Positions 1 through 63,700 are shown, counted from the stretch's first letter. The stretch: 64,000 nt of DNA from Nannocystis bainbridge (GCF_028368995.1 NZ_JAQNDL010000004.1:448001-512000); one strand, 5' to 3'. Notes: a model not told the origin generated them from the letters alone. Numbers and translations: made by a program.

Positions 1-1349
1 ATGTAGTCGGTCTTGCGCTGCATCGACTCGGGGTCGTCGTAGGTGATGAAGAGGTCGTCGGCGGCGTCGTAAAGCCACGGGACCGCGGCCTCGGCGTGCC
101 AGAAGCGCTCGAGCTCGGGCTCGTAGTTGGCGACGATGTCGTGGTAGTCGACGATGCCGGGCTCCCAGGTGCCGGGGCCGGCGCCGCTGAAGGTCGAGTA
201 GAGGCCGTCCTGGCCGCCGCTGGCGCCGGCGAAGCTGCGGCCGTAGAACGGCACGCCGAGCACCAGCTGATCGGGCGCGACGCCGGCGGCGAGGATGGCG
301 GTGACGGCGGAGTCGTCGCTGAGCAGGGCGTTGTTCGGGTCGGGATCGTCGGCCGGGCTGTAGAGCGCGGCGTTGTGGGTGGTGGTGCCCATCCACGGGC
401 CGGCGAAGTCGTAGGCCATGAGGTTGATCCAGTCGACGCTGGCGGCGATGCCGGGGAGATCGAGGTTGGCGAGGTTGCCCGGTCCGGCGGGCGCGGCGAT
501 GGTCAGCAGGTAGTCGGCGCCGTCTTCGGCCCCGGCGGCGTCGAGCTCGGTCCGCAGGGCGGCCAGGAGCGCGCTGTAGTGCTGGCCCTCGAGCGGCGAG
601 GCGGGGAACTCCCAGTCGATGTCGACGCCGTCGAACCCGTAGTCGCGCATGAACTTGACGCACGAGGCCGCCAGCTTGGCCCGGCCCTGCTCGGTGGCGG
701 CGTTGGGGGCGAAGTTGGTCGACCAGGTGTAGCCGCCGACCGAGATGAGGGTGCGCAGGTGGCCGTGCTGCTGCTTGAGCTGGTGAAGCTGGTGGAAGCT
801 GCCCTTGAGCGGGGCGTTCGGGTCGTCGCCGTCGTAGACCTTCTCGATGTCGGCGTAGCTGTCGCCGAGCACGCACTCGCCGGCGGGGCTGAGGTTGGCG
901 AAGGCGTAATTGACGTGGGTGAGCTTGGCGGCCGGGATGTCGCTGACGTGGTAGTCGCGGTCGTAGACGGCCCAGGCGGTGAAGTAGCCGACGATCCGGC
1001 CGGCGCCGCGGACGGGATCGCCGGTGGTAGTCGTCGTGGTGTCGATGTCGGTGGTGTCGGTGGTGTCGGGGCCGGTGGTGGTCGAGGCGACGGTGGTGGT
1101 GCCCGGGTCGCCGGTGGTCGGCGCGGTGGTGCCGGTCGGATCGCCGCTGTCGCTGTCGGTCGCGGTCCCGCTCGTCCCGGAAGTCGTGCCGGCGGTGATG
1201 ACGGGATCGGTGGCTGTCGAGCCGTCGGTGGTCGCGGGTGAGCCTGTCCCTTCGGACATGGTCGAATCGCCCTGTCCCCCGGGACATGCAGCGACGAGCG
1301 CGGCGGTCAGCAGGAGCGCGGGGACGGGGCGGGGTGGAAGCGACGGCAT
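1..1349 (-). CDS. GH18 chitinase lipoprotein (C-terminus runs off the window start)
   Basis: Manual translation: MPSLPPRPVPALLLTAALVAAC lipobox, Thr-rich linker, then RIVGYFTAWAVYDRDYHV, THVNYAF, ISVGGYTWS, FDGVDIDWEFP (DxDxE catalytic motif) and INLMAYDFAG. Absent from the ORF track because no stop codon lies in the window. Confidence 0.92.
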   Translation of the reverse strand, partial: MPSLPPRPVPALLLTAALVAACPGGQGDSTMSEGTGSPATTDGSTATDPVITAGTTSGTSGTATDSDSGDPTGTTAPTTGDPGTTTVASTTTGPDTTDTTDIDTTTTTTGDPVRGAGRIVGYFTAWAVYDRDYHVSDIPAAKLTHVNYAFANLSPAGECVLGDSYADIEKVYDGDDPNAPLKGSFHQLHQLKQQHGHLRTLISVGGYTWSTNFAPNAATEQGRAKLAASCVKFMRDYGFDGVDIDWEFPASPLEGQHYSALLAALRTELDAAGAEDGADYLLTIAAPAGPGNLANLDLPGIAASVDWINLMAYDFAGPWMGTTTHNAALYSPADDPDPNNALLSDDSAVTAILAAGVAPDQLVLGVPFYGRSFAGASGGQDGLYSTFSGAGPGTWEPGIVDYHDIVANYEPELERFWHAEAAVPWLYDAADDLFITYDDPESMQRKTDY

Positions 1350-1387
1350 GGACGGCCATCTTGACGGCACTCGCGGCCCGAGAGCGA

Positions 1388-1430
1388 GGACAAAGCGAGC
1401 GCGGGGGCGCGCCAGGGCGCCCCCGCTCGC
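1388..1430 (-). terminator. Putative intrinsic terminator after VWA lipoprotein 1
   Basis: GC-rich inverted repeat (gcgagc-gc-gggggcgc / gcgccccc-gctcgc) followed on the minus strand by a short TTTG tail. Confidence 0.5.
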
Positions 1431-4085: not shown

Positions 4086-5252
4086 CTAAAGACAGCCGAA
4101 GCGCAGCCGGGCGATCGCGCCCGCGTGCAGCCGATCACAGGCGGCGGGGCAAAGCTCGATCGCCCGGTGGGTGTCGTCGCGCCAGCGCCAGGCCCAGCGA
4201 TCGTCGCAGTCGGGGTCGGCGCGGTGCATGCGACCGTCGACGTCGAGGGCGACGAGGTTCGGATAGTCGGGCGCGGCGTCGATGCCGATCCGGCAGGCGT
4301 CGACCTGCTCGGCCAGGGGGGCCAGGCGCTCGCGCAGACCGGCCAGCACCTGCGGCAGCGCGGCCGTGTCGCGCAGGTGGAGGTAGTGCTCGGGCCCCGC
4401 TTGCGCCGCGCCGCCGGCCAGCGCGAGCGCGTTGAAGTACTCGTGCGGGTTGACGTCGTCGATCATGCTGTCGCCCGCGAGCAGCGGGGCGAGCACGTCC
4501 ATGACGCTGATGCCGACGACGACCGTCGGGATGCCGCTGGCGAAGCTGGCCTCGACCAGCGGGTAGACCTCGCCGTCGAGCTTCTCGGCGATGTCCTCTT
4601 TGATCTTCGGCTTGGTCGGGCAGTTCGGCGGGTTGTCGCTGACGAGGACGATGGCGCGCTGGCGCAGCAGGCCGTCCTCCAGCGGCGGGAACAGGTCGGA
4701 CCAGGCCTCGCGCAGCGGGTTCTCGCCGATCGGCGGCGAGGCGATGTCCTCGGGGACAGCGTCGAGGATGGCCGCCGAGACGTCTTCGGTGCCGAATGGG
4801 ACCCGCGAGTTGTCGTTGAGGTTGCAGAAGCCCTGCTCGGAGATCAGGGTCGGCGTCGGGAACACGACCGCGGCGAAGTCGATGCGATCGGCGAACTCGG
4901 GCACGAGGGTGTGGACCAGCGCGACCAGGCCGTCCCAGCGGCTGAGGCCGGGCGGGTCGACGGCCTGGGCGCAGCGCTCGCGCTCGGTCGGATCGTCGAG
5001 GCAGCGGCGCATCGACTGCGAGTGGTCGAGCAGCAGGGCGACCTGCGGGCGCACGTCCTGCAGGTCGAAGGTGAGGCCGCTGCAGCGGCGCTCGACGGCG
5101 CACACGCCGTCGTCCTGGCACGGCAGGTCGGGGCCGCAGTCGGCGTCGGTCTCGCAGCGCTCGCCCCAAAGCGCCTGTCCTTCGAAACATGACCCGAAGA
5201 CCAGGGCCGTGGCGAGGCAGGCGAGGCGCGCGAGGCCGGCCGCGCGCGCCAT
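4086..5252 (-). CDS. VWA-domain lipoprotein 3 (divergent paralogue, Cys-rich N-terminus)
   Basis: Start MARAAGL at 5252, overlapping the upstream stop; VFGSC lipobox, CETDADCGPDLPCQDDGVC, DHSQS MIDAS, LVSD, C-terminal IELCPAAC...RFGC. Confidence 0.82.
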   Translation of the reverse strand: MARAAGLARLACLATALVFGSCFEGQALWGERCETDADCGPDLPCQDDGVCAVERRCSGLTFDLQDVRPQVALLLDHSQSMRRCLDDPTERERCAQAVDPPGLSRWDGLVALVHTLVPEFADRIDFAAVVFPTPTLISEQGFCNLNDNSRVPFGTEDVSAAILDAVPEDIASPPIGENPLREAWSDLFPPLEDGLLRQRAIVLVSDNPPNCPTKPKIKEDIAEKLDGEVYPLVEASFASGIPTVVVGISVMDVLAPLLAGDSMIDDVNPHEYFNALALAGGAAQAGPEHYLHLRDTAALPQVLAGLRERLAPLAEQVDACRIGIDAAPDYPNLVALDVDGRMHRADPDCDDRWAWRWRDDTHRAIELCPAACDRLHAGAIARLRFGCL

Positions 5253-5884
5253 CAGTGGCCCTTCCAGGTCCGGCGCTTGCCGGTGTCGAGGTGGACGAAC
5301 TGGCTGACGGGGTAGTAGCCGACGCCGCCTTTCCACCGCTTGAGCGCGTACTTGTAGAGCTTGTCGGCCTTGACGCCGCGCAGCGAGAAGTCGATCGCCT
5401 GGCTGCGCGCGTGCTGGCTGTCGCGCGCGACCTCGTGGCCCTTCTTGGTGAGCATGAGGTTGAACTTGGGGTGGCGGAAGCCGCTGATGACGCGGACCTC
5501 GCCGGCGCCGAAGTGGTCGGCCGCGGCGACGACCCCGGCGATCAGCTCGGCGGGGTGGCCGGCCGGCTCGTCGGTGAAGCGGCAGCGAAAGAAGCTCGCC
5601 AGCGCGCCGGGAGGGTGGGGGCCGCGCAGCGGCATGACCTCGAGCGTGTGAAGGTGACGGGCGAACAGCACCGGGTCGGCCTGGTCGCCGGCGCGTGGGG
5701 AGTCGCGGCAGACCGGGTCGATGAGACATGTTCCATCGGACATGTCCTTGGGGCAACATGCGCGCCGGGCCGGCGGCGGGGCCCGCTTGGCGGCGAGGTA
5801 GGCGGCCTTCTTGTCGTCCTCGTGCTCGCCGGTCGGACCGACGGCGGGGCCGAGCAGCGCGGCGACGAGGAGGACGACCTGCAC
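5252..5884 (-). CDS. YcbK/DUF882 family protein (peptidase M15-like)
   Basis: VISGFRHP, SQHARSQAIDF and GGVGYYP..FVHLDTG..RTW motifs; signal peptide. Confidence 0.85.
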   Translation of the reverse strand: MQVVLLVAALLGPAVGPTGEHEDDKKAAYLAAKRAPPPARRACCPKDMSDGTCLIDPVCRDSPRAGDQADPVLFARHLHTLEVMPLRGPHPPGALASFFRCRFTDEPAGHPAELIAGVVAAADHFGAGEVRVISGFRHPKFNLMLTKKGHEVARDSQHARSQAIDFSLRGVKADKLYKYALKRWKGGVGYYPVSQFVHLDTGKRRTWKGH

Positions 5885-5971: not shown

Positions 5972-6451
5972 CTAGCCGGCGTCGCCGGGGAAGCGCGCGA
6001 CCTCGACGTAGGCCCCGGGGCCGGCGTCGCCCACGCGGCGGAACAGCACGGCGCCGCCGATAGTGTGCTCCTGGGCGTCGACGACCAGGTAGTCGACCGG
6101 GTAACCGGCGGCCAGCGCGGCGGCCTCGTCCTCGGCCGAGAAGTAGGCGCCGACCCGCGGGTGCGAGTGGTAAATGATGGTGGGCGGATCGTCGCCGTCG
6201 AAGGCGCGCGTGAACTCGATCAGCTCGCGGCCGCCGAAGTTGTAGCCGTTGGCCGAGGTCCGCGGGTAGGTCTCGGGGTCCATCGCGTGCAGCTTGTCCA
6301 TGAAGTTCTTGCACGGATACAGCCGCATGGCGTCGCCGCGGCCGCGCAGGTAGCCGCAGCACTCGCCCGGGAACTCGGCCCGCGATTGGGCGTAGATCTG
6401 GGCCAGGAGCGCAGCAGGGACGGCGAATTCGGAGGCTGGCGTTTCGGACAT
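5972..6451 (-). CDS. mec: Mov34/MPN/JAMM metallopeptidase (Mec-like CysO-cysteine peptidase)
   Basis: FPGECCG and IYHSHP...YFSAED JAMM motif; located in an operon with a sulfur carrier and cysM. Confidence 0.85.
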   Translation of the reverse strand: MSETPASEFAVPAALLAQIYAQSRAEFPGECCGYLRGRGDAMRLYPCKNFMDKLHAMDPETYPRTSANGYNFGGRELIEFTRAFDGDDPPTIIYHSHPRVGAYFSAEDEAAALAAGYPVDYLVVDAQEHTIGGAVLFRRVGDAGPGAYVEVARFPGDAG

Positions 6452-6456
6452 GTCCT

Positions 6457-7437
6457 TCACCACAGGTAGCGCTTCTCCCAGCGCAGCGGGACGAAGTAGC
6501 GGTCGCCGCGGTCGCACAGGATGGTGACGACCACGCCGCGGCGGCCCTCCGCAGACAACTGCTTGGCGATCCGCAGCGCGCCGGCGACGTTACCGCCCGA
6601 GGAGTGGCCGACGAACAGGCCCTCCTCCCGGGCGAGCCGCTCGGCCATGTCCCAGCCCTCGTCGGTCGGCAGCCAGATCGTGTCATCGAGCACGCCGGCG
6701 TCGTAGATCGCCGGCACGATGCTCGAGGGCAGGTGCTTCATGCCCTCGAGGCCGTGCATGGCGTCGTCGGGCTGGATGGCGACGCAGCGGATGTCGCGGC
6801 TGAACTCGTGGAGCCGGCGCGAGGTGCCGACGACGGTGCCGCTGGTGCCGATGCCGGTCACGAAGTGAGTGACGCGGCCGCCGGTCTGCTGCCAGATCTC
6901 GGGCGCGGTGGTGTGGTAGTGCGCCAGCGGGTTGTTGGGGTTGCCGTACTGGTCGGCGTAGTGCCAGCGCTCGGGGTGACGCTCGACGAGCTCGTGGGCC
7001 AGCACGATCGCGCCGTCGCTGCCCTCCATCGGGCTGCTGTAGACGATCTCGACCCCGTACGCGGTGGTGACCTGCTTGCGCGGGGCGCTGACGTTCTCGG
7101 GCATCACGAGGGTGACGGGCACGCCGAGCGCGGCGCCGACCATGGCGTAGGCGATGCCGGTGTTGCCGCTGGTGCTGTCGATGAGGCGCACGCCCGGGCG
7201 CAGCAGGCCGCGCGCGAGGGCGTCACGCACGATCCGCAGGGCGGCGCGATCCTTGACCGAGCCGGCCGGGTTGCAGAACTCGCACTTGGCCCAGATCTCG
7301 ACGCCGGGCGTGGCGCGATCGATGTGGTGCAGCCGCACCAGCGGGGTGTTGCCGACGAGGTCGACGATGCTGTCCGTTCGGACAGCTCGCCCCGGACGCA
7401 GGTCGCTCAGGAGTTGTTCGCGGCCGGTGGGCAGCAT
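6457..7437 (-). CDS. cysM: PLP-dependent cysteine synthase (CysM-like)
   Basis: VGNTPLV, KCEFCNPAGSVKDR, STSGNTG, GIGTSGT, HGLEG; start inferred at MLPTGREQ. Confidence 0.88.
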   Translation of the reverse strand: MLPTGREQLLSDLRPGRAVRTDSIVDLVGNTPLVRLHHIDRATPGVEIWAKCEFCNPAGSVKDRAALRIVRDALARGLLRPGVRLIDSTSGNTGIAYAMVGAALGVPVTLVMPENVSAPRKQVTTAYGVEIVYSSPMEGSDGAIVLAHELVERHPERWHYADQYGNPNNPLAHYHTTAPEIWQQTGGRVTHFVTGIGTSGTVVGTSRRLHEFSRDIRCVAIQPDDAMHGLEGMKHLPSSIVPAIYDAGVLDDTIWLPTDEGWDMAERLAREEGLFVGHSSGGNVAGALRIAKQLSAEGRRGVVVTILCDRGDRYFVPLRWEKRYLW

Positions 7438-10808: not shown

Positions 10809-11810
10809 ATGGCGGCCGAGCTCGGCGGGCTCGCGTGGCCCGCCCGCGTACAGATCTGGGACGCCGCGTTGGCCGCCGTGCGCGGCTATTTTCGCGAGGC
10901 GGGCCTGCGCGAGGTCAGCACGCCGGTGCGCGTGCCCGCGGTCGCGGTCGAGCCGTTCATCGAGCCGATCGCCGCGCCGCCGGGCCTGCTGGCGACCAGC
11001 CCCGAGCTGGCGATGAAGCGGCTGCTGGTGCGCGGCAGCGGGCCGATCTTTCAGATCGCCCACGTGTTCCGTCGCGCCGAGGTCGGCGATCGTCACAGCG
11101 AAGAGTTCCACCTCGTCGAGTGGTACCGCCTCGGCGCCGATCTCGATCCGCTGCTCGCCGACGTCGAGGCGCTCGTAGCCCGGGTGTTCGCTGCGACAGG
11201 TACGAACGGACATGTCCCGAAGACCTGGCAGCGCGCGCGCTTCGGCGACGTGGTGACCGCGACCTGCGGCGCGCGCCTGCGCGGCGACGAGGGGCCCGAC
11301 GCCTTGGTGGCCGCGCTGCCGCCGGCGCTGGCCGCCGAGGTGGTCGCGGCGCTGGTGCCGGCCGCGGGCGCGGACCCGGCGGCGCGGACCCTGATGGCGT
11401 GGACGGCTTTCTTTACTGCCTGGTCGGACATGTTCTTCGAGACATGGCTGAAAGGACATGAAGGTACGCACCTGGTCGACTTCCCGGCGCCGCTCGCGGC
11501 GCTGGCGGTGACCGACCCGGAGCGGCCGTGGCTGGCGCGGCGGGCCGAGTGCCACGTCGGCGGGCTGGAGATCGCCAACGGCTACGTCGAGCTGCGCGAC
11601 GCCGACGAGCAGCGGCGTCGGTTCGCGGCGGTCAACGAGCTGCGGCGGGCCCACGGCTCGGCGGCGCTGCCGATCGACGACGAATTCCTGACCGAGCTGC
11701 CCGGGCTGCCGCCGTGCGCCGGGATCGCTCTCGGCCTCGACCGCCTGATCACCCTCGCAGCCTGCCGCACGCGCCTCGCCGACGTCTCGCTCGCCCTCGC
11801 TGGCGGGTGA
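10809..11810 (+). CDS. epmA: EF-P lysine aminoacylase EpmA/GenX
   Basis: LATSPELAMKRLL, FRRAEVGDRHSEEF, LEIANGYVEL, GIALGLDRL; directly downstream of efp. Confidence 0.92.
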   Translation: MAAELGGLAWPARVQIWDAALAAVRGYFREAGLREVSTPVRVPAVAVEPFIEPIAAPPGLLATSPELAMKRLLVRGSGPIFQIAHVFRRAEVGDRHSEEFHLVEWYRLGADLDPLLADVEALVARVFAATGTNGHVPKTWQRARFGDVVTATCGARLRGDEGPDALVAALPPALAAEVVAALVPAAGADPAARTLMAWTAFFTAWSDMFFETWLKGHEGTHLVDFPAPLAALAVTDPERPWLARRAECHVGGLEIANGYVELRDADEQRRRFAAVNELRRAHGSAALPIDDEFLTELPGLPPCAGIALGLDRLITLAACRTRLADVSLALAGG

Positions 11811-13281: not shown

Positions 13282-14085
13282 ATGTTTGAACACTATCTCA
13301 CGTACCAAAAGTCCGACCCCAAGCGTCAGCGCCGGATCGCGATCGCTTCGGTCGTGTCGGGCACGCTCACCTTCTCCGGCATCATCTTCGTCTGGGCCGC
13401 GAACAAGATGAACATCACCAAGGTGGACCCGCCGACGGTCCAGTTCTTGATGGTGCAGATGAGCGCCGAGGAGGCCGCGCCGCCTCCACCTCCGCCTCCG
13501 CCGCCCGCCGCGGCCGAGACCCAGGAGGAAGAGGAGAAGGAAGAGATCCCCGAGGAGGACGTCCCGGAGGAGATCGTTCAGCCGAAGGAGACGCCCGACA
13601 AGGTGCCCGACGTGAAGAAGACGGCGGGCGGCCCCAAGACCAATTCGGTGCCCGGCGGCGTGCCCGGCGGCGTGCCCGGCGGTGTGCCCGGCGGCGTGCT
13701 GGGCGGTGTGCTGGGCGGTCAGCTCGGCGGCCAGCTCGGCGGCGTGGCGACCAAGCGCGACGCGACCCAGGCGGTCGCGCCGAAGCCGATCGCGGTGGTC
13801 ATGGGCAACGCCATCTACAAGCCCGATCCCGAGAGCAACAAGCTCGCCGCGACCAAGGCCGGCATGTTCGACAAGCGGCCCGGCACCGTCACGATCTTCT
13901 TCTGCGTCGACGTCGACGGCAAGACGACCGAAGTGAAGACCAAGAAGAAGTTCCCCCACAACGACCCCAAGGTCGACGAAATCTGCCGCGACACGGTCAA
14001 GAAGTGGCGCTTCAAGCCCTTCATGGTCGGCGGCAAGGCGACCAAGGTGTGCTCCGAGGTCGACTTCAACATCAAGTTCAACTGA
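13282..14085 (+). CDS. TonB-like energy transducer
   Basis: N-terminal TM helix, poly-Pro and Glu-rich linker, GGVP repeats, TonB_C-like end (VDVDGK...KKWRFKPF...VDFNIKF). Confidence 0.85.
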   Translation: MFEHYLTYQKSDPKRQRRIAIASVVSGTLTFSGIIFVWAANKMNITKVDPPTVQFLMVQMSAEEAAPPPPPPPPPAAAETQEEEEKEEIPEEDVPEEIVQPKETPDKVPDVKKTAGGPKTNSVPGGVPGGVPGGVPGGVLGGVLGGQLGGQLGGVATKRDATQAVAPKPIAVVMGNAIYKPDPESNKLAATKAGMFDKRPGTVTIFFCVDVDGKTTEVKTKKKFPHNDPKVDEICRDTVKKWRFKPFMVGGKATKVCSEVDFNIKFN

Positions 14086-14227: not shown

Positions 14228-14396
14228 GGCCCTTCGGGCCTGATCCACTGCACGGCCCTCCGGGCCTGATCCACTGCACGGCCCTCCGGGCCTGATCCAC
14301 TGCACGGCCCTCCGGGCCTGATCCACTGCACGGCCCTCCGGGCCTGATCCACTGCACGGCCCTCCGGGCCTGATCCACCGCACGGCCTTCAGGCCC
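14228..14396. repeat. Tandem array of 6.5 x 26-bp hairpin units
   Basis: GGCCCTCCGGGCCTGATCCACTGCAC at 14228, 14254, 14280, 14306, 14332 and 14358, plus a partial copy at 14384; no spacers. Confidence 0.97.
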
Positions 14397-14430: not shown

Positions 14431-15167
14431 ATGGAGCTCATCGACATCACCACGCTACTCGCCAACACCGGCGGCACGGACTTCTCCCTCGCAGGCATGT
14501 GGGAGCAGATGGGCATCTTCGCCAAGGTCATCTTGGTGTTGCTCATGCTCATGTTCCTGCTGTCTCTGGCGATCGTGCTCGAGCGCCTGCGGGCTTACTC
14601 GCGGTCGCGGCGGCACTCGATCCAGTACATCATGCTGCTGCGCAACTTCTTGCAGGAGCGCAAGCTGCAAGAGGCGGTCGCGGCGGCGCAGACCCACGGC
14701 GACAGCCCGCTGGCCAAGGTCGTCGGCGCCGGTCTGAACGAGTACATCAAGGGCATGGAGGCCCTCAACGAGGAGGGTCCCGAGGATGTCGGCGACTTCG
14801 ACCTCGTCGACGCGGTCAACCGCCAGCTCGAGCGCGCCAAGGAGCGTGAGACGGCCAACCTCAAGCGCGGCCTGACCTCGCTGGCGACCGTCGGCACCAC
14901 CGCCCCGTTCGTCGGCCTCCTCGGCACCGTGGTCGGCATCATCAACTCGTTCCAGGGCATCTCGTCCGACGGCGGCGGCGGTCTGTCGTCGGTCGCCGGC
15001 GGGATCTCCGAGGCCCTCGTCGCCACCGCGGTGGGCCTCCTCGTCGCCATCCCGGCGGTCGTGATGTTCAACTCCTTCAACGCGCGGGTCGAGGGCTTCC
15101 AGATCGACATGAACGACGTGGCGTCGGAGCTCATCGACTTCGTCCTCAAGGAAGGGCGCTACCCCTG

Positions 15168-22689: not shown

Positions 22690-22690
22690 C

Positions 22691-48979: not shown

Positions 48980-48993
48980 GGCCGCGGTGAAAC

Positions 48994-49958: not shown

Positions 49959-49963
49959 GCGAA

Positions 49964-50056
49964 GGGACATGTCCGATGGGACATTCCCTCGAGGACATGG
50001 GCTTCGGGGCAGGTCTTTGGGAGCATGTCCGATAGGACATGACGTGAGGCGACATG
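49964..50056. repeat. 14-bp-period palindromic array (6-7 cores)
   Basis: Cores at 49968, 49982, 49996, 50010, 50024, 50038 (and 50053). Confidence 0.9.
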
Positions 50057-50119
50057 GGCCGGCGCCGACGCGACGAGCGTGGCCGGCGTGCTGACCCCCA
50101 GCGCGGGGGAATGCGCCGC

Positions 50120-51589
50120 TCACGGCATGCGGACGACCGGCGGGGGCACCCAGTCGCCGCGCAGGACCGGCTCCTTGGGCCAGTAGAGGCGCATGATCAG
50201 GTTGAACGGGCCGGCGGGCGCGGGCAGCCAGTTGGCCTCGCGGGCCTTGCCGGGCGACTCGTGCTGGATGTAGAGGTCGAGCGAGCCGTCGCGGTTGCGC
50301 TTCAGCTTGTCGCGCTGGCCGAGGCCGTAGCGATCGAGCGGGTTGTCGACGAAGTAGTGCTGGGCGTCGTAGAGGGTGACCGACCAGAAGCCCGCGACCG
50401 GCGGGGTCTCACCCTTGTCGAAGTGGAGGACGTAGCGGCTCGCGCCGGTCAGCGGCTGGCCCTCGCCGTCGACGCTGGCGACCGGATAGACAGCGTCCTG
50501 CGGCAGGTTGGCGCCGAGGCCGACCTCGGCGATGAGGGCCCGCAGCTCGTAGTCGACGCCGTACTGGCCGATGTCGGTGGTGATCCGCCAGCCGTTGACC
50601 TGGTCGCCCGGCAGATGATGGGCCGCGGCCGCCAGCTCGGCGCGAGCGTCGGCGAAGCCCTCGTCCAGCGCCAGGGTCTCGGCCGGCGTGAGGGCGTCCG
50701 GGTTCCACGGCCGGCCGCGCTCGAGCCGGAGCTCGCGCATGGCCGCGACCATGGCGGCGTCGGCCTCGGCCGGCGGGTTCTCGGGCAAGAGCTCGGCGAC
50801 GCGGGCGAGGAACGCCTCGGGGGCCATGGCGAGGACCTGCTGCGGGGGCGGGGTGCTGACGTCGACGCCGGTGGTCAGCGGCGTGGGCTCGGGCGCGACG
50901 GCCATCGGGCCCCAGCCGGACAGCGGGGTGAGCTTGTACTGATCTTGCAGCTTGTGGACGGCGAGGGTGTCGAGCTCGCTGGTGACCTCGGTGCGGCCGA
51001 TGATCCAGACGATGTCGGTCGGGGCGCGCAGCTCGACGAGGCCTTCGGGCAGCGCGCCCTGCCAGGTCGGTCCGACCACGGCGAACTGCTGGGCCTTGTT
51101 GCCGGTGGTGCGCGTGCCGGGCGAGGCGAACACGTTGGTCCAGGCGTCGAGCATCGGCATGAGCCAGTAGCGCTTGCCCATGTCGGGGACGCTGAGCACG
51201 ACGGGCTCGCGGGCGAGGTCGAGCCAGGCCGAGGAGTAGAGGGTGTCGGCGTTGGGGCTGACGACGTCGTGGAACTTGGCGCTGGGGAAGGCGCGCAGGT
51301 GCTGGAAGCTGTTGACCGCGGTCTGCGAGGTCATGACCTGGCGGGTGAGGTCCATGAGCACGAGCGGGTAGGCGAAGGTGTAGACCTGCTGGGCGATCCG
51401 GCGCAGCCGCGGATCGGCGGTCGGCTCGGGCGGCGGCGGCTCGGGTGCCAGCTCGCGGACGGGCTCGACCGGCGCTGCCACCTGCGGCGCGGGCGCGTGG
51501 GCGAGGCTGCGACCGCGGTGACAGGCGAGGGCGAGCAAGCCGAGGGCGAGGACCGGGACGAGCGAGCGGCAGGACGGGCTCCGGTGCAT
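50120..51589 (-). CDS. DUF1254/DUF1214 lipoprotein
   Basis: LALAC lipobox; PNADTLYS, GLGANLPQDAVYP, FWSVTLY, NWLPAP, MRLYWP. Confidence 0.92.
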   Translation of the reverse strand: MHRSPSCRSLVPVLALGLLALACHRGRSLAHAPAPQVAAPVEPVRELAPEPPPPEPTADPRLRRIAQQVYTFAYPLVLMDLTRQVMTSQTAVNSFQHLRAFPSAKFHDVVSPNADTLYSSAWLDLAREPVVLSVPDMGKRYWLMPMLDAWTNVFASPGTRTTGNKAQQFAVVGPTWQGALPEGLVELRAPTDIVWIIGRTEVTSELDTLAVHKLQDQYKLTPLSGWGPMAVAPEPTPLTTGVDVSTPPPQQVLAMAPEAFLARVAELLPENPPAEADAAMVAAMRELRLERGRPWNPDALTPAETLALDEGFADARAELAAAAHHLPGDQVNGWRITTDIGQYGVDYELRALIAEVGLGANLPQDAVYPVASVDGEGQPLTGASRYVLHFDKGETPPVAGFWSVTLYDAQHYFVDNPLDRYGLGQRDKLKRNRDGSLDLYIQHESPGKAREANWLPAPAGPFNLIMRLYWPKEPVLRGDWVPPPVVRMP

Positions 51590-51702
51590 CGGGCAAGGCT
51601 GGCCGAGGCCCGCCGCGGCGCAAGCAGGCGGGCGGGCCGGAAGCGGCGATGCGGGGCGGCAATTGCGGGCTGCAGGTCGAGGACGGCGCGGCCGTGCGTC
51701 AG

Positions 51703-51928
51703 GATGTCTCTCGGGACATGTCACTCGCGCTCGCCGAGTGGATGTCTCTCGGGACATTTCACTCGCGCGCTCGTCGGCGTCGAGTGGATGTCTCTCGGGA
51801 CGTTTCACTCGCGCGCTCGCCCGCGCCCGGCACATGTCCCGAGGGACATGTCACTCGGGACATGTGCCGGGTACATGTCTCTCGGGACATGTCACTCGCG
51901 CGCTCGCACGCATGACCCGAAGGACATG
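51703..51928. repeat. Composite array of 14-bp units (GATGTCTCTCGGGACATGTCACTCG repeated)
   Basis: Core groups at 51703/51717, 51741/51755, 51787/51801, 51833/51847/51861, 51874/51888, 51911/51925. Confidence 0.92.
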
Positions 51929-51947
51929 CGCGCGCGCGGGTGCCGCC

Positions 51948-54749
51948 TCACTCGGCTTCGCGGTACTCGAGCGCGAGCTCGCAGTAGGGGTCGAGGTAGA
52001 GGGCGCGGTCGAAGCACTCGCGGGCGTTGTCGCTGGCGCCCATGCTGACGTAGATCGCGCCGCGGTAGGCGTGGAGGATCGCCAGGCTCGGGTTGATGCT
52101 CTCGGCGTAGTCGAGCAGCTCGAGCGAGTTCTGGCCGATGTCGGGGTCGCAGCCGCTGGCGCGGTAGCGGGCGAACGCGAGGTGGGCGTGCAGGTCGGCG
52201 GTGTCGAAGCCGGTGTTGTAGGCGTCCTCGAACAGGGCCACGGCGGTGTCGTAGTCACCCTCGCGCATGGCGGCCTCGGCCTCGCCGTAGCGCACTGCCG
52301 CGTAGCTGGCAGCCCCGCCGTCGCCGCTGTTGGCGTCGTCGTTGGCCCCGACGAAGGTGTTCTCGCCGCTGGCGAGCATCGGCTCGTCGGCGTAGCCGGC
52401 GTCGTCGTCACCGATCTCGGCGTCCTCGTCGAGCTCGTCGAGCTCCTCGGCGTCGTCGTCCTCGTCGCCGAGGTCACCGAGGTCGGCCGAGAGCACGCCG
52501 GAGACGTTGGGATCGCCGAGGTCGGCCAGGTCGACCGCGAGCGACAGATCGCCGGAGACGTTGGGATCGAGCGGGGCGCCGTCGAGGTCGTCGCCGAGGT
52601 CGCCGGCGAGGTCGCCGAGGTCGTCGCCCAGGTCGAGGCCGTCGAGGTCGTCGAGCTCGGGCAGCGGCTCGTCGCCGTCGCCGAGCAAGAGGTCGTCGTC
52701 GACGCCAGCGAGCAGCTCGTCGGGGTCGAGGCCAGCGTCGGGGTCAAGGCCAGCGTCGGGGTCGGTGCCGGGACCCTCGTCGGCGAGCACGGCGGCGAGC
52801 GACTGCACGCCGCTCTCACCGGCGAGGTCGCCGAGGTCGCCGAGGTCGCCGAGGTCACCTGGTTCTTCGGGCAGGTCGGCGAGCGGCTCGAGCGCGAGGC
52901 TGGCGGGCGTGAGGGTGGCCGGCGGCTCGGGATCGAGGTCGCCGCGGCCGAGCTCCGCGAGGTCGGCGAAGGCGCCGTCGGCAGGCGCTGCTTCGGGCTC
53001 GCTCGCGGCGGCGATCGCCGGCTCTTCAGGCGCTGCGTCGTCGGCCGGAGCGTCGTCGCCCGCGTCGGTCGGATCGTCGAGCATCTCGTCGTCGTCGAGC
53101 TCCTCGAGCTCTTCGATGTCCTCGAGCGGCTCGTCGTCGGCGTCGGTCTCGTCGGGGATGGCGATGCCGGCGAGGGACTCGTCAGGGAGGGGCTCGTCGA
53201 CGAGGGCGAGGCCCACGAGCGACTCGTCGGGCAGGGGCTCGTCGGGCAGGGCGATGCCGGCGAGCGACTCGTCGGGCAGGGCGATGCCGGCGAAGGACTC
53301 GTCGGGGAGCGGATCGTCGGGCAGGGCGAGGCCGGCGAGCGACTCTTCGGGGAGGGCGATGCCGGCGAGTGATTCGTCAGGCAGGGCGACGGTGGCGAGC
53401 GCGTCGTCGCCGAGCAGGTCGTCGGGATCGCCGAGGTCGTCGGGCAGCTCGGGCTCGGCGAGCAGGGCCAGCGCGGCGCTGGAGGGCGAGAGGTCGGGCG
53501 CGGGCGCGGCGACCGGCGGGTCCTTGCGCAGCGAGGACAGGCCGGGCGGGGGGCCGAGCTTGTGGGTCGCGGGCGTCGGCGCGGGGGCGCGGATCGAGTC
53601 CTCGGGGCCGTCGCGCAGGTCGCTGAAGTCGGTCTCGGCGTCGAAGGCCCCCGAGACGTCGGCGGACGGGGCGGGCGTGAGCGTCGGCGCGATGGCGGGC
53701 GCGGGGCGAGGGATGATCTCGCGAGCGGCGGCCGCCTGCAGCTTGGCCCGCAGGTTGCGCGGGTCGGTGACGATGCTCTCGTCGACGTTGAGGCCGCGGA
53801 ACATCTCCTCGTCCTCGGTCGGCAGCAGCGGGACCCGCGGGTTGCGGCTCGAGGAGGCGCCGAGGTCGATCGGGAGCCGGCTCGGCAGCGGGGTGTCCTC
53901 GTACTCGCCGATGGTCGAAAGGACCTCGAAGCCGGGCGCGAGCTGGTCCTCGGGCAAGGTCGGCGGGGTCAGGTTGGGCCGCAGCGGGGCCAGGCGCCGC
54001 GGCGATTTGGTCTCGAGCGGGTCGACGACGCCGGCGCTGAGGAGGCCGAGCAGCAGGGTCGAGAGCTGCGGGACCTCGAGGTCGGGGCGGCGCGACAGCA
54101 GCTCGTCGGTGGAGCGGCTGCCGTCGATGCAGCGCAGGAAGTACAGCTCCTCGGGCAGGAGCTCGAGGCCGGCCGCGTCGCCGCTCCAGCGCGGGCTCGG
54201 GGTCGGGTACCTGTCGGCGAACGGTTTGAGGGCCTCGCGCGCGCGCTCGTCGGTGAAGCGCTCCTGGATCGCGGCGAGGATCAGCGCCTCGATGGTGCCG
54301 GCCGGCGGGGTGCCAGTGATGCCGGGCTCGGCCCCGGACTTGAACTGGAACCGGCCCTCGTCCCAGGCGAAGATCTCGAACAGCTTGCGCCGCAGCTGCT
54401 CCTCCAGGCCGTAGCGCAGGTTGTGCTCGGAGAGGATGCCCATCTCGACCAGCAGCTCGCCCTGCTTCTTGCCGGTGCGGCGGATGGCCTCGAGGGTGTT
54501 GTCGCACTGCTCCTGCGTGATGAGGCCCTGATCGGTCAGGACCTGGCCGAGGAACTCGGTGGCGAGGTTGCTGCGCACGACCGTGGGCTGGCCGTCGACG
54601 AAGAACACGACCTTCTTCGTGTCCCCGCTCATCAGGTACAGGCTGCCGGTGATGCCGGCGCCGGCGATGTCGCGCAGCAGGCTGGAGAACGGCACGCGCT
54701 TGAGCGAGCCCTTGGTCGGAAACCCGAGGTCGGTGTCAGCGGAGGTCAT
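51948..54749 (-). CDS. DUF4388-domain protein with long acidic low-complexity linker and C-terminal TPR
   Basis: KGSLKRVPFSSLL..TGSL..FFVDG, LGQVL, LFEIFAWDEGRFQF; TPR ARECFDRALYLDP. Confidence 0.85.
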   Translation of the reverse strand: MTSADTDLGFPTKGSLKRVPFSSLLRDIAGAGITGSLYLMSGDTKKVVFFVDGQPTVVRSNLATEFLGQVLTDQGLITQEQCDNTLEAIRRTGKKQGELLVEMGILSEHNLRYGLEEQLRRKLFEIFAWDEGRFQFKSGAEPGITGTPPAGTIEALILAAIQERFTDERAREALKPFADRYPTPSPRWSGDAAGLELLPEELYFLRCIDGSRSTDELLSRRPDLEVPQLSTLLLGLLSAGVVDPLETKSPRRLAPLRPNLTPPTLPEDQLAPGFEVLSTIGEYEDTPLPSRLPIDLGASSSRNPRVPLLPTEDEEMFRGLNVDESIVTDPRNLRAKLQAAAAREIIPRPAPAIAPTLTPAPSADVSGAFDAETDFSDLRDGPEDSIRAPAPTPATHKLGPPPGLSSLRKDPPVAAPAPDLSPSSAALALLAEPELPDDLGDPDDLLGDDALATVALPDESLAGIALPEESLAGLALPDDPLPDESFAGIALPDESLAGIALPDEPLPDESLVGLALVDEPLPDESLAGIAIPDETDADDEPLEDIEELEELDDDEMLDDPTDAGDDAPADDAAPEEPAIAAASEPEAAPADGAFADLAELGRGDLDPEPPATLTPASLALEPLADLPEEPGDLGDLGDLGDLAGESGVQSLAAVLADEGPGTDPDAGLDPDAGLDPDELLAGVDDDLLLGDGDEPLPELDDLDGLDLGDDLGDLAGDLGDDLDGAPLDPNVSGDLSLAVDLADLGDPNVSGVLSADLGDLGDEDDDAEELDELDEDAEIGDDDAGYADEPMLASGENTFVGANDDANSGDGGAASYAAVRYGEAEAAMREGDYDTAVALFEDAYNTGFDTADLHAHLAFARYRASGCDPDIGQNSLELLDYAESINPSLAILHAYRGAIYVSMGASDNARECFDRALYLDPYCELALEYREAE

Positions 54750-54960: not shown

Positions 54961-56919
54961 TCACGCAGGCTCGTGGAGCGGCAGACGGATGACGACGGCG
55001 GCGCCGCCGAGCTCGCTGTCCTCGACCCGGACCTCGCCGTTGTGGTCGAGCACGACCTTCTTGACGATCGCAAGGCCGAGGCCGGTGCCCTCCTTGCGGG
55101 TCGACTCGTAGGGCTCGAAGACCCGCTCGCGCCGCTCGATCTCGATGCCGGGGCCGTTGTCGTCGACGCGCAGCTCGACGAACCCGGGCTCGCCCCGGGC
55201 CGGCCGCGCGGCCACCCGCACGTGCACGGGGCCGCGCTGCCGCTGCGACAGCACCGCGTTCTCGACCAGGTTGACCAGGCATTGCTTGAGCAGCTGGCGG
55301 TCGCCGAGGATGACGAGCGAGGCCGGGGCGGGCATGACCTCGAGGACATCGGCGTCGCGCTCGGTGAGGTGGCCGTAGGCGCGCTCGAACTCGCCGAGGA
55401 TCCGCGCGACCAGGGTCGGCTCGAGCTGGGCCTCGGGGACCTTGGCGAAGCGCGAGAAGCTGGTGACCATGCGCCGCAGCGACTCGATCTCGTCCTCGAC
55501 GATCTCGACCGAGGAGCGGAGCAGGCGCGAGAAGTTCTCGTCGGTGCCGGGGTCCTTCTCGCGCAGCTGCTGGGCGGCCAGCTGGATCGGGGTGAGCGGG
55601 TTCTTGATCTCGTGGGCGATCCGCCGCGCCATCTCCTGCCAGGCGCCGACCCGCTGCAGGTAGGACAGCTTGCGCTGGGCCGAGGCGAGCTCGTCGAGCA
55701 TGCCGTTGAAGGCGGCGCCGAGCTGGCCGAGCTCGTCGTTGCCGAGCTCGGGCACGCGCGCCAGCAGGTCGCCGCCGGCGACCCGCAGCATGGCGTCGCT
55801 GAGCATGCTGAGCTTGCGCGTGGTGGCCCGCGCGAGCAGGAAGCCGGCGATGAAGGCGACCATCAGCACGAGCGCGCTGGCGGCCCCGATCGCGCGGTAG
55901 ACGGCCCGCTCGAGCTCGCCGCGGTCGACGACGTTGCCGTCGACGGTGACGTAGTCGAGGCCGCGCTTGATCATGCCGAGCGACTGGTAGTCGCGGTCGA
56001 GCGCGGGGTCGAGGGCGAAGATGGCGGCGAGGCGATCCTGGTCGGTGGGACCTGTCGCTTTGAACATGTTCAAAGGGACAGGCCCGGACATGACCCAGAT
56101 CCGCGCGCCCTCGTCCTCGGGCAGCAGATCGCGCCGCTCGGCCAGGGCGTGGTGCGGGCCGTTGATCTCCAGCTCGACGAGGTCGGGCTCGCGGCGCAGC
56201 AGGGCGTGCAGCAGCTCGCGCGGGCCGGCGGGGTCGTCGGCGGTCAGCTCGCCGCGGGCGGCGGCCAGCTCGAGCTCGCGGGCCATGGCCTCGAGGCGGG
56301 CGCGGTAGGTCTCCTTGCGGGCCTTGACGTAGCCGTCGTAGAAGGGCAGCGAGAGGGCGACGGCGTCGTCGCTCTTCTGGGTGGCGGCGCCGACGATGCC
56401 CTCGAAGTACTGGACGGTGAGGGCGACGAGGTAGGCCGAGGCGCCGACGCAGAGGATGCCGAGGCAGACGAGCGCGGTGATCACCCGCGACTCGAGCCGA
56501 CCCCACCACGGCACACGCGGGGCGGCGACGATGCGCTGACCGATCCGCGTCATGCGGATCCGCGAGAGGTCGCTCGGGCGCGAGTCGGCGGCGCCGAAGC
56601 GGAAGAAAGAAGAAGTGCGGGCCCCGGCCTTGTCGGCGCGCGGGTGGACGCTGGACTCGGGGCGCGCGGCCGGGGTGACGGCGGAGGGCGGGCGCGCGGC
56701 GGTCCGGGCTCGCGGCCGCGAGGGCTCGCCGAGCCTGGGGCGCGGATCGAGGTCGTCGCGCGGGCCCGCGGGCAATTCGTCGGAGGCGGCCGGCGTGGTG
56801 CGCGAGCCGGATCGTCGCGGGAGGTCGTCGCGCGATCCGGCTTGATGCGTCGCGTCGCGCGCGCCGGGCGGGTTCACCGGGCGCGGGGCGTCGTCGTCGC
56901 TGGGGCCGCGCGCGCTCAT
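54961..56919 (-). CDS. HAMP sensor histidine kinase, NtrY-like
   Basis: Two TM helices, HAMP, AWQEMARRIAHEIKNPLTPI, DNGPGI, GTGLGL; ATGA coupling at 56916-56919 (alternative start 56553). Confidence 0.92.
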   Translation of the reverse strand: MSARGPSDDDAPRPVNPPGARDATHQAGSRDDLPRRSGSRTTPAASDELPAGPRDDLDPRPRLGEPSRPRARTAARPPSAVTPAARPESSVHPRADKAGARTSSFFRFGAADSRPSDLSRIRMTRIGQRIVAAPRVPWWGRLESRVITALVCLGILCVGASAYLVALTVQYFEGIVGAATQKSDDAVALSLPFYDGYVKARKETYRARLEAMARELELAAARGELTADDPAGPRELLHALLRREPDLVELEINGPHHALAERRDLLPEDEGARIWVMSGPVPLNMFKATGPTDQDRLAAIFALDPALDRDYQSLGMIKRGLDYVTVDGNVVDRGELERAVYRAIGAASALVLMVAFIAGFLLARATTRKLSMLSDAMLRVAGGDLLARVPELGNDELGQLGAAFNGMLDELASAQRKLSYLQRVGAWQEMARRIAHEIKNPLTPIQLAAQQLREKDPGTDENFSRLLRSSVEIVEDEIESLRRMVTSFSRFAKVPEAQLEPTLVARILGEFERAYGHLTERDADVLEVMPAPASLVILGDRQLLKQCLVNLVENAVLSQRQRGPVHVRVAARPARGEPGFVELRVDDNGPGIEIERRERVFEPYESTRKEGTGLGLAIVKKVVLDHNGEVRVEDSELGGAAVVIRLPLHEPA

Positions 56920-59666: not shown

Positions 59667-59768
59667 GCTGTCCGAAGGGGCAGGTCCCAAGGGGAATGTC
59701 CGAAGGGGCAGGTCTGAAGGGGCAGGTCCCAAGGGGCATGTGCCAGGGGACATGCCCGAAGGGTCAGG
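59667..59768. repeat. 14-bp-period palindromic array (8 cores)
   Basis: Cores at 59667, 59681, 59695, 59709, 59723, 59737, 59751, 59765. Confidence 0.93.
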
Positions 59769-60522: not shown

Positions 60523-60746
60523 GCGCGGCGGACCTTAGCAAAATCGCCGGGCGCGGGTGTCCGGGCCGCCGTGCGCTGCGCAGGTGCGAGCTCGCTCGCG
60601 TAAGGCAAGGTGGGACGCGAGCGGCGGCCGTCGCTGCGCCGCCGGGGGGCCGCTCCGGGCCGCCAGGTTGCGCCGCAAGGTAGCCTGTGCGACCGTTGGT
60701 GTCGGTCCGCGCGCGTATCGGGATGGCACTCCGTCGCAACAGATTG

Positions 60747-63700
60747 ATGGGTTGGAGCTCCGCGTCGATCGCTGCGGCGGTGCTGGCGCTGGCGTGCGGT
60801 CCGGGCGTTCGCTCGGAGGCCGGGCCCGATCTGGCCAACCTGGCGGGCAAGAGCGGGGCCGACGAGCCGATCCGCCGCGAGCCGCCGATCTCGCTGACGG
60901 CCGCCGACGGGGCCGAGCTGCCGCTGCGGGTGCTGCGGGTGCGGGCGGTGCTCGATCAACCGCTGGCGTTCACGGAGCTCGAGCTGGCGTTCGACAACCC
61001 GGAGGGCCGCCCGCTGGCCGGCCGCCTGGCGCTGGCGATCCCGCCGGGCGCCCGCGTGACCCGGTTCGCGGCGTTCCGCGACGGGGCCTGGCAAGAGGCC
61101 GAGGTGGTGCCGCGGCGGACGGCGATCCAGGAGCTGGCGCTGAACCACGCGCCGCAAGAGCCGCAGCTGGTCGGGGCGCCGGAGGGCGAGCGCTTCGTGG
61201 CTCGCGTCGAGCCGATCGCGGCGCGGCAACAGACGCGGCTGATCGTGGCGTACACGCAGGAGATGCGCGGCCGCAGCGAGCCGTACCGGGTGCCGGTGGC
61301 CGGGCTGGCGCCGCTGCGCGAGCTGGCGGTGGCGCTGCGCTCGCGGGCGCCGCTGGTGATGGCCGGCGACCCACTGTTCGCGGGGGTCCGCGGCGACGGC
61401 GAGTTCTACCGGTTCGCCGACGTGCGTCCGACCGGCGACATCGTGGTCCAGCCGCACGGGCCGCGCGAGCTGGGGCTGCGCCACGACAACATGGTGGTGG
61501 CCCGGATCTCGCCGATCCCCCACGACCACCCGGATCCGGTCGAGAGCCTGGCGATCCTGTTCGACACCAGCGCCTCGCAGGCGCTCGGCTGGGACACCCA
61601 CGTCGACCGCCTGGGGCAGGTGATCGAGGAGCTGGTCGCGCGGGTCCCGAAGGACTTCCCGCTGCGGGTGGTGGCGTTCGACCAGGGCGCCGAGACGGCG
61701 TACGAGGGGACGATCCGCGGGTTCGGCGAGGCGGCGCTGGCGGCGATCCGCTCGCGGCGGCCGCTCGGCGCCTCGAACCTGCTGGGCGCGCTGCGCTTCG
61801 CGGCCCGCAGCGGCGAGCGACCGGCCCGGCGCATGCTGGTGATGACCGACGGGCTCATCACCGCCGGGGCGCACACCGAGGCGGCGCTGGTCGCCGAGGC
61901 CGAGCGGCTGCGCAAGGACGGGGTGGCCCGGCTCGACGTGATGCTCGAGGGCGGTGCGGCCGATCCGGCGCGGCTGCGCGGGCTGACGGCGCTGACGCAT
62001 TTGGGCGCGCAGCCGGAGACGCTCAAGGCGATGGGCCACGAGCTGGCGCCGTCGCGGCCGGGGCTGGTGCTGCGCAGCGGGGTGACGCCGCGGGTCGCGG
62101 CGCATCGGCTGACCCGCACGGTGGTGCGCGACGTCGAGGTGCGCGTGCCCGGCAGCGGCTGGGTCTACCCGCAGAAGCTCGAGAGCGTGCAGGCCGGCGA
62201 CGACGTGCTGGTCTACGCCGAGTACGCGGAGGACGAGCTCGAGGTCGAGCTGGTCGGGCACGAGGTCGCGGCGCGCCACGGCGTGGCGCTGACGCGCTCG
62301 CCGTCGCCGCTGCTGCAGGACGCGTGGGCGGGGGCCCGCGCGGCCTGGCTGATCGACCAGGCCCGCTCGTGCGCCCGCGGGCCCGACGACACCTGCGACA
62401 AGTTCCGCGAGCGCGCGGTCGAGTTCTCGCTGTCGAACCGGATCGTCAACGACGCCACGGCGATGGTGGTGATCGGCTCGGCCCACGACTACGCCCGCTT
62501 CGGCCTCGACGGCACCTCGCTGCGCGACGTGCTGACGGTCGGCAAGTTCGGGCCCGAGTGGCGCGAGGCGGCCCCGGTGCCGCTGCCCGACGAGCGGGCC
62601 GCGCCGCCGTCGCACGCGCTGCTGGCCGGGCTGCGCATGTCGAGCTTCGACGCCGCGCCGGCGCCGACCACCGCCGCGGCCCCGCCGGTGCCGCCGGTGC
62701 CTGTCCGATCGCGCAGGTCCGAACGGCAAGGTCCCAAGAGACCTGTCCGAGAGAACAGCCGACCCGACGCCGCCGCCGATCAGGCCGGCGAGGACGCGCG
62801 CGACCGCATGCGCGACAAGGACGCCGGGCTGCGCTTCGGGCCCCAGCGCACGCCGGCCGACGCCTACGAGGGCAACTTCCTGGCGGTGATGAACCTGCTC
62901 GGCGCGTGGGACGACAAGCGCAACGCGCTCGGGGTGGCGGAGCGGTGGCAGCGGGCGGCGCCGGCCGACGTGATGGCGCTGCTGGCCCTCGGCGAGGCGC
63001 TCGAGGCCAACGGCCGCGACGACCTGGCGGCCCGCGCCTACGGCTCGCTGATCGATCTGTACCCCGGCCGCGCCGACGTGCGGCGGACCGCGGCGGGCCG
63101 GCTCGAGCGGACCGGCGAGGGCGCGGGCGGGCTGGTCCTCGACGCCTACAGCCGCGCGGTCGAGCAGCGCTACGACGATCCGGCCGGCTATCGCCTGTAC
63201 GCCTACGCGCTGCTGCGGGCCGGCTACTTCGGCGAGGCGTGGGCGGCCCTGCTCGACGGCATGGCGTGGGCCCGCGTCGAGCCGAAGACCCGCGGGCTCG
63301 AGCGCGTGTTCAAGGACGATCTCGGCCTGGTCGCGGCGGCGTGGATCCGTCGCTGGCCCGACCAGCGCGACTACGTGATGGAGGCGCTGCGGGTGCAGGA
63401 GGCCGAGCTGGCCGAGCAGCCGTCGCTGCGGTTCGTGCTCAGCTGGGACGACGCGCAGAGCGACCTCGACCTGCACGTGCGCGACGGCCACGGCTGGCAC
63501 GCCTTCTACCGCGAGAAATCACTCGAGTCGGGCGGCCGCCTGCTCGACGACATGGACGCGGGCTACGGGCTCGAGGCGTTCGTGATCGACGGAACGGCCG
63601 CGGCCTACCCGTACCGGCTCGAGGTCGGCTACTACGGCCGGGGCTCCGACTACGGGGCGGGCAAGGTCCAGATCGTCGAGCACGACGGCGCGGGCCAGCT

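Follow-up and report, generated by a model that had tools for sequence, protein, structure and literature searches.

Inside several protein-coding genes of the 64,000-nt stretch analysed here (the window, positions 448001-512000 of contig C4 in genome G000), a short palindromic motif recurs in strict 14-bp register, and we hold with moderate confidence that these intragenic motifs genuinely belong to a family of abutting sites, found genome-wide but restricted to one genus, and that they are constrained through duplex recognition by a putative protein that would polymerise in the same register. The unit is GGACATGTCC followed by 4 nt or, in an equivalent view, a series of abutting TGTCC-N4-GGACA sites; the site consensus is TGYCC-N4-GGRCA, and where two sites meet the junction reads GGRCATGYCC. 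Evidence for constraint comes from arrays ascertained in G000 and compared between two of its congeners, G010 and G001, a design that avoids ascertainment bias (31 intragenic arrays, 195.6 kb aligned three ways). At third codon positions the CATG junction is 0.935 identical (n=108) and the spacers are 0.763 identical (n=59; Fisher p = 0.0026), with a genome-wide value of 0.880, and across four congeners in the window alone the corresponding values are 0.964 for CATG (n=32), 0.815 for spacers (n=18) and 0.892 for background. Since the 14-bp period rotates through all three codon frames, amino-acid constraint cannot yield such a core-versus-spacer pattern: conservation tracks the 14-bp phase, not the codon phase. 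As far as alignments can tell, this supports a constraint at the level of the nucleic acid rather than remnants of insertion, as had been proposed in the initial annotation, a reading of the window made from its sequence alone.

Excess, codon effects and origin of the genic copies

Throughout, an array is defined as two or more units that each agree with GGACATGTCC at 7/10 positions or better and follow one another at exactly 14 bp, and abutting TGTCC-N4-GGACA sites served as a second criterion for loci. Genic arrays were counted in 6,413 high-confidence coding sequences (CDS) from which the first 50 and the last 21 codons had been removed (7.18 Mb of an 11.05-Mb genome of 71.5% GC in five contigs), with other unit spacings and ten synonymous-codon shuffles within genes as controls. 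The trimmed set holds 868 arrays of two units, 136 of three and 113 of at least four, whereas the shuffles give 235-274, 23-38 and 16-23 (about 250/29/20), spacings of 13, 16 and 17 bp give 61-81, 0-4 and 0, and spacings of 12 and 15 bp, both divisible by three, yield 277-311, 46-68 and 3-4. Intragenic counts are therefore far above the synonymous-shuffled expectation. The mark left on the coding sequence is also as the initial annotation had described it: successive units fall in different frames, with the three frames used about equally (346, 305 and 298), and A/T-ending codons make up 37% of codons in 253 intragenic arrays of at least three units, as against 5.4% elsewhere in the same genes. 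Among the amino acids encoded by these 253 arrays, Met is enriched 5.4-fold, His 2.6-fold, Cys and Ser 2.2-fold each and Lys 2.0-fold, and the genic copies lie in fast-evolving protein segments.

Five genomes that share synteny with the window served for the congener comparison, their main colinear blocks being 78-94% identical to it (mostly 84-94%). All alignable intragenic arrays of the window are present in every aligned congener, and where linkers vary, spacers and flanks change around invariant cores. Thus the cores of 1240-1291 are kept in 3 aligned congeners, the array at 5171-5194 is kept in 4, the sites at 6437-6464 are nearly invariant in 4, and those at 35931-35958 are invariant in 6 species amid variable flanks. 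Over a wider stretch of C4, the 39 intragenic arrays that align in G010 comprise 19 kept, 14 partly kept and 6 weak, and the 32 that align in G001 comprise 19 kept, 11 partly kept and 2 weak, with no indel in either set (0/39 and 0/32). Intergenic arrays occupy the same gaps across congeners, but their unit number and sequence differ and most are unalignable; the congener alignments of the window break at them.

Comparison with the array-free sister genus (genome G011) extends this picture beyond the genus. With an orthologue-like match defined as at least 40% identity over at least 50% of the length, 45 arrays lie in hosts that have one; 39 of these are spanned by a high-scoring segment pair, 28 gap-free and 11 gapped, and 6 are unspanned, the corresponding figures for arrays of at least three units being 7, 4 and 3. 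Since 28 of the 39 assessable arrays lack an outgroup indel, most intragenic arrays were written into codons that already existed, by point substitutions, amino-acid changes and A/T-ending codons included. In epmA, for example, the array at 11426-11463 aligns codon for codon with an array-free family member (L022), with R to M (CGC to ATG), P to T (CCN to ACA) and GR/GP to GH. The kinase array region at 56048-56085 has the same length as the G011 orthologue and the 44877 array the same length as its outgroup orthologue, and the linker of the VIT protein is too variable between genera for an indel comparison. The expectation that sites arise mostly by substitution, and are not the remnants of insertions, is thereby upheld. 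As a side observation, tblastn matches of the G011 and G013 orthologues of the kinase and VIT protein (L153, L162 and L163) cross 1-2 stop codons, which may reflect a match running past the gene end or a broken gene.

The 14-bp family across the genome and the genus

The register of the family is unmistakable genome-wide. GGACATGTCC occurs 956 times, as against 10 expected under a first-order Markov model, and core-to-core distances peak at 14, 28, 42, 56, 70 and 84 bp (1177, 551, 483, 238, 92 and 43), with single to low double digits between the peaks. Pairs of units (at least 7/10) 14 bp apart number 6,343 versus 106-464 at spacings 9-20, and triples in the same register 2,427 versus 0-12 at control spacings. 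When chained, the units form 3,852 arrays of 2 to 12 units each, 1,418 of them with at least three; control spacings of 12, 13, 15, 16 and 17 bp yield 111-541 arrays, nearly all two-unit, with 6-96 of at least three units. The same structure emerges when sites rather than units are counted. Abutting TGTCC-N4-GGACA pairs number 2,784 at spacing 14 versus 0-9 at 12, 13, 15 and 16; the site itself occurs 1,987 times, twice the count of the GGACA-TGTCC junction, versus at most 16 for any other spacer from N0 to N12; and 683 isolated sites lie outside arrays, versus 13 (N3) and 3 (N5) in the controls. Because of this site count, the isolated sites and the extra TGnCC half-unit found at array ends, the element is read as a self-abutting 14-bp inverted-repeat site. 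The four-base spacers between cores are A/T-enriched and otherwise free, adjacent spacers being identical 127 times versus 54 expected, and around the arrays there is no conserved tetranucleotide, conserved flank, terminal repeat or target duplication.

Several smaller features of the arrays deserve mention here. Array sizes are not geometric (513, 358, 285 and 182 arrays of 3, 4, 5 and 6 units, then 58, 14 and 6 of 7, 8 and 9), a distribution that hints at a preferred total length of ~55-85 bp. In some genes, 42-bp (three-unit, 14-codon) in-frame duplications are found, as where the peptide EGHVREGMS occurs twice (C3:1347900-1348049, C3:1816605-1816726 and C4:601110-602289), and these may be why the peak at 42 bp is almost as high as that at 28 bp. 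Nowhere in the genome are units more densely packed than in a cluster at C3:1094001-1102000 (33 in 3 kb), which consists of higher-order tandem repeats, 39-117 bp long, with one or two units in each; inspected as a possible master locus, it held only these higher-order repeats with their embedded unit pairs and no hint of a binder. A role for CATG as a methylation or restriction island was rejected, its observed/expected ratio being 1.24 with only 19% of CATG sites within arrays. Among other tetranucleotides of G000, CTAG has an observed/expected ratio of 0.20, and AATT, TATA and TTAA are 1.9- to 3.1-fold over second-order expectation.

The positions of the arrays relative to genes are far from even. 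Convergent gaps, which make up 2.5% of bases, contain 566 of the arrays with at least three units; same-direction gaps (8.5% of bases) contain 467, divergent gaps (4.6%) 49 and genes (84%) 336. In all, 1,082 of 1,418 are intergenic, with a 16-fold enrichment in convergent gaps and an approximately 4-fold depletion per base in genes. Among gaps of at least 30 bp, the share with an array is 58.5% for convergent gaps, 25.7% for same-direction gaps and 13.5% for divergent gaps. Arrays in same-direction gaps begin a median of 19 bp past the upstream stop codon, with 164 bp between their end and the following start; those in convergent gaps are ~20 bp away from either stop, and 74% of arrays are nearer the upstream stop than the next start. 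The main niche of the family is thus shown to be ~20 bp downstream of stop codons.

The range of the array family is a single genus, probably Nannocystis. The longer form CATGTCC-N4-GGACATG occurs 369 times in G000 and is present in 10/10 other genomes of the same genus (2-266 copies, lowest in small incomplete ones), with 0-5 in eight other genera of the same family and 0 in 12 other families. Among the matches listed from named species-representative genomes, 67/80 loci belong to Nannocystis or Nannocystaceae and the other 13 are scattered single matches. Tandem Repeats Finder (TRF) reports 2 period-14 rows in 400 kb of G011 versus 49 in 400 kb of G000, and the G011 region contains no 14-bp arrays, no over-represented 8-mer and no dialect of the motif. 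Literature searches turned up no account of the motif in bacteria (GGACATGTCC gives only p53 response-element papers and incidental matches) and nothing relevant on repeats in myxobacteria and Nannocystis, and no Rfam family matches at gathering score.

What may read the arrays

The anatomy of the arrays and their conservation together lead us to propose a protein that would read the duplex motif in a 14-bp register. This putative protein, probably dimeric, would recognise the motif sequence-specifically and polymerise along the DNA, three sites spanning 42 bp, or about four helical turns. It would act mainly at the ends of transcription units, for instance as an insulator, a roadblock or a topology site, and the intragenic copies would persist wherever the protein sequence tolerates them, favoured by the same recognition or by a linked drive. 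A bolder version, which we consider doubtful, is that of an insulator or chromatin system encoded in the sequence: a genus-specific protein would polymerise on the arrays, which would mark most convergent transcription-unit ends and hundreds of genic positions besides, and its sites would be constrained strongly enough to alter protein sequence and to persist for as long as the genus has existed. If the constraint is real, the arrays would be an unusually clean instance of a second code, one not for protein, superimposed on genes. They would also, given the thousands of sites and the several congeners with sequenced genomes, offer a tractable system for asking what reads gene ends in high-GC bacteria without canonical terminators, and how strongly a DNA-level signal can bend protein evolution.

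There is precedent for the architecture, if not for the scale. MetJ metboxes, omega heptads, ParR iterons and BldC repeats are all abutting, fixed-register sites, variable in number, along which a protein polymerises; unlike the present family, whose loci number in the thousands and lie both within genes and at their ends, they are confined to single loci or a few operators per replicon. For scale, the available part of a study of Myxococcus xanthus describes CdbA, a ribbon-helix-helix nucleoid protein of moderate sequence specificity with more than 500 sites, both intergenic and genic (PMC7156744). The motif given there is a direct repeat separated by 4 bp, whereas ours is an inverted repeat, and that part of the study describes no phased arrays (PMC7156744).

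Several points weigh against recognition by a polymerising protein as the source of the constraint. The CATG junction is better conserved than spacers, but against genome-wide third positions (0.935 versus 0.880) its advantage reaches only p = 0.1. Some ~7-30% of the two-unit genic arrays are expected by chance, to judge from the 13-, 16- and 17-bp spacings and the shuffles. Genes were called by a home-made caller (codon log-odds on open reading frames, ORFs) that is crude and unreliable for start codons, and the outgroup is a single 400-kb region of G011, in which some matches may be paralogues. Selection and biased drive predict the same patterns and are indistinguishable with these data. 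Finally, there are two signs of a role in RNA: intergenic arrays (n=741) fold slightly better than permuted ones (-5.97 versus -5.80 kcal per unit, p = 4e-9), and on the sense strand of arrays in same-direction gaps G.U-type exceed A.C-type combinations (821 versus 634, p = 1e-6).

It is because of these last two signs that an RNA-level role at gene ends is kept as a possibility. On this account the arrays would be 3′-end hairpins in transcripts, terminators or stabilisers resembling repetitive extragenic palindromic (REP) elements, and the intragenic copies tolerated by-products; we think it unlikely, although it is the best placed of the alternatives. The proximity to stop codons described above is what it would predict, and some folds are very strong. 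The range is wide, from z = -9.8 (25870-25965, -72 kcal/mol) to z = -0.7, the latter value being that of the array at 1240-1291, with the VIT array at 62697-62748 at z = -1.0. However, pairing itself leaves no trace: Watson-Crick combinations, whether within units or across spacers, occur at the frequency expected under independence, so that there is no base-pair covariation, and mirror spacers match at 1.15 of 4 positions versus 1.07. In six window arrays, congener changes break pairs of the G000 minimum-energy structure 54 times and keep 20. Genic arrays of 4-7 units (n=142) fold no better than permuted ones (-5.06 versus -5.03 kcal per unit, p = 0.87) and show no G.U-over-A.C asymmetry (490 versus 463); they are conserved in sequence, not in fold. 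Loops on the sense strand show no preference for UUCG or GNRA. Selection for hairpins on the intragenic arrays was accordingly rejected by the covariation, mirror-spacer, loop, permutation-fold and cross-species pair tests. An intrinsic terminator, moreover, is a G+C-rich hairpin followed by a T/U tract, whereas the arrays are heterogeneous in hairpin strength and have no T-run beyond their ends (T frequency 0.11-0.17 in the 10-32 bp past them), and the Rfam search was likewise negative. For window positions 44001-54000, a look for RNA data sets carrying the sequence listed none. A terminator within a gene would be harmful, yet intragenic copies are kept. What is left is a small folding effect in intergenic arrays only, which fits an RNA-level role at gene ends.

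Next in order, and also unlikely in our estimation, is a drive of the kind known for uptake sequences, in which an uptake or recombination step prefers the motif and copies accumulate by point mutation without benefiting the locus that carries them. The uptake sequences known so far are asymmetric 9-12-mers that occur singly, not palindromes in strict 14-bp tandem register. Inverted pairs of the uptake signal sequences of Pasteurellaceae (USS) and the DNA uptake sequences of Neisseriaceae (DUS) are located behind genes. The family is genus-specific and has thousands of copies, its intragenic members arose by substitution at poorly conserved residues with the Met and His enrichment given above, and 200-kb stretches poor in arrays, down to 16 loci, are possible recent acquisitions. 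The same pattern is described for USS and DUS, where a short motif specific to the lineage and present thousands of times is overprinted by point mutation on codons for poorly conserved residues, with peptide frequencies changed (PMC2817400). A drive of this kind does not account for the overabundance of 4-6-unit arrays, and the 16-fold enrichment directly after stop codons would need a second explanation. USS and DUS differ further in having about half of their copies in genes, where our arrays are depleted, and in lacking the palindromic, strictly 14-bp-phased arrays of up to 12 units.

That the arrays are mobile or slippage-generated selfish repeats, like miniature inverted-repeat transposable elements (MITEs) or REPs, which occasionally land in genes, is to our mind improbable by a wide measure. 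The rapid change of intergenic arrays between species in unit number and sequence, the excess of identical adjacent spacers, the 42-bp in-frame duplications in some genes, and the 11 of 39 spanned intragenic arrays that coincide with an insertion relative to G011 are all in its favour. Against it, most intragenic arrays are equal in length to the outgroup and carry no indel within the genus, the arrays have neither conserved flanks nor terminal repeats nor target duplications, and a search of G000 (completeness 90.5%) for a Y1/RAYT transposase (PF01797) gave 0 matches, the control search being positive in 6/14 genomes. The nearest relatives in this class are the REP elements of Enterobacteria and Pseudomonas and the bacterial interspersed mosaic elements (BIMEs) that they form, which are likewise high-copy, short, palindromic, clustered, lineage-specific, mostly extragenic, situated after genes and enriched between convergent ones. 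REP units, however, are 20-40-bp hairpins of alternating orientation with a GTAG/CGTC tag, whereas the array units are 14 bp (10 + 4), strictly tandem and untagged, with no RAYT found in G000, no pairing covariation and hundreds of conserved genic copies. By this comparison the family is most like REP/BIME in its niche and most like uptake sequences in its overprinting of genes, and it lacks defining features of both, as it does of parS, matS, SlmA and Noc sites.

The least probable account is that these are regularly spaced chromosome-organising sites required every few kb, of the type of parS, matS, SlmA-binding sites (SlmA-SBS) or Noc-binding sites (Noc-NBS), and here the initial annotation, which had invoked such systems, is not supported. 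A palindromic, conserved motif, present genome-wide and overprinted in genes by substitution, is what this account would have, but the gaps between the 3,225 array loci are overdispersed (mean 3.4 kb, median 2.0 kb, coefficient of variation 1.32) and the intragenic arrays do not fill them, lying a median of 3,287 bp from an intergenic array as compared with 3,738 bp for random genic positions; regular spacing and gap-filling were rejected on these figures. Density ranges over 16-91 loci per 200 kb on all five contigs, including the GC-skew switch of C3, and no region is devoid, in an assembly where ori and ter are only partly placed. The known systems have few to ~100 single sites, confined to or excluded from macrodomains, in contrast to 3,852 arrays on all contigs, and neither tandem arrays nor a stop-codon-proximal niche is like them. 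The copy number of the arrays is 10 to 100 times that of these systems, and the motif differs from their consensus sites.

Loci in the window and other repeats

Under the strict rule the window has 25 arrays, and a selection of the loci is collected in the table below. The initial annotation had listed eleven in-phase runs inside genes. The core it described, C(A/C)(T/G)GTCC or GGAC(A/C)(T/G)G, is present at every coordinate it gave, and nine of the 11 loci hold at least two in-phase sites (6 strict arrays and 3 abutting-site pairs); the loci in prfA and at 24666 hold one each and, taken singly, are unproven. Its remark that the 12-22 kb region is free of arrays is accurate, there being none between 11463 and 22627. 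Its gene names were in large part confirmed by Pfam (DUF882, JAB for mec, PALP for cysM, class-II tRNA-synthetase-like for epmA, RF1, histidine kinase and VIT), but the 'chitinase' and 'VWA3' (4086-5252) have no Pfam family. It had passed over genic two-unit arrays at 11194, 23063, 34381, 55330 and 58623, of which the one at 55330, not conserved in congeners, is probably due to chance.

Table. Sites and arrays of the 14-bp family in the window, genic and gene-adjacent loci first
Feature	Position	Context
Intragenic array, 4 units	1240-1291	Minus-strand secreted-protein ORF, directly after lipobox Cys; the 'chitinase' of the initial annotation
Intragenic array, 2 weak units (both 7/10)	5171-5194	Signal-peptide region of ORF 4086-5252(-)
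Array, 2 units (8/10, 10/10)	5724-5747	N-terminal part of DUF882/Peptidase_M15_2 gene 5252-5884(-), upstream of domain
Two abutting TGTCC-N4-GGACA-type sites, 8/10 each (6437/6451)	6437-6464	Overlaps cysM stop and JAB (mec) start codon
Array, 2 units, not in the initial annotation	11194-11217	epmA variable loop, at 2-codon insertion
Array, 3 units	11426-11463	epmA variable loop; nonsynonymous substitutions, no indel versus outgroup L022
Single 8/10 site, weak neighbours	24668-24681	Upstream of predicted start of 24714-25865(+); coding status uncertain
Single 9/10 site	31749-31762	prfA; indistinguishable from chance or protein conservation
Two abutting sites, 9/10 each (35931/35945)	35931-35958	Low-complexity linker of 35470-36477(+)
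Two abutting sites, 8/10 and 10/10 (44879/44893)	44879-44906	In 44363-45355(-); no indel versus outgroup L158
Array, 3 units	56048-56085	Histidine kinase 54961-56919(-), linker N-terminal of HAMP
Array, 4 units	62697-62748	VIT protein 60780-63827(+), linker between VWA-like and TPR parts
Intergenic array, 4 units	22627-22678	Convergent gap
Intergenic array, 6 units	25879-25958	Fills 100-bp convergent gap; fold -72 kcal/mol
Two intergenic arrays, 4 and 5 units	29105-29260	Single convergent gap
Intergenic array, 6 units	36511-36590	Convergent gap
Intergenic array, 5 units, non-palindromic GGACAGGTCG variant	44280-44345	Between same-direction genes
Intergenic array, 6 units	49965-50044	Convergent gap
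Intergenic arrays, 3 and 2 units	51830-51894	Between same-direction genes
Intergenic array, 6 units	59678-59757	Convergent gap

The window also holds tandem repeats of other kinds. Between the ORFs at 13282-14085 and 14431-15168, a 26-bp repeat unrelated to the 14-bp family (14228-14387, unit GGCCCTCCGGGCCTGATCCACTGCAC) is present in 6.2 copies with 98% matches, and three congener alignments break near 14267-14349, in this repeat region. Longer repeats lie in or adjoining intergenic stretches at 39544-39811 (88 bp x 3.0) and 36717-36909 (67 bp x 2.7). Overlapping tandem repeats with periods of 9-105 bp occupy 52400-53426 within a 933-aa ORF (51948-54749, minus strand), which suggests a repetitive acidic segment in the encoded protein.

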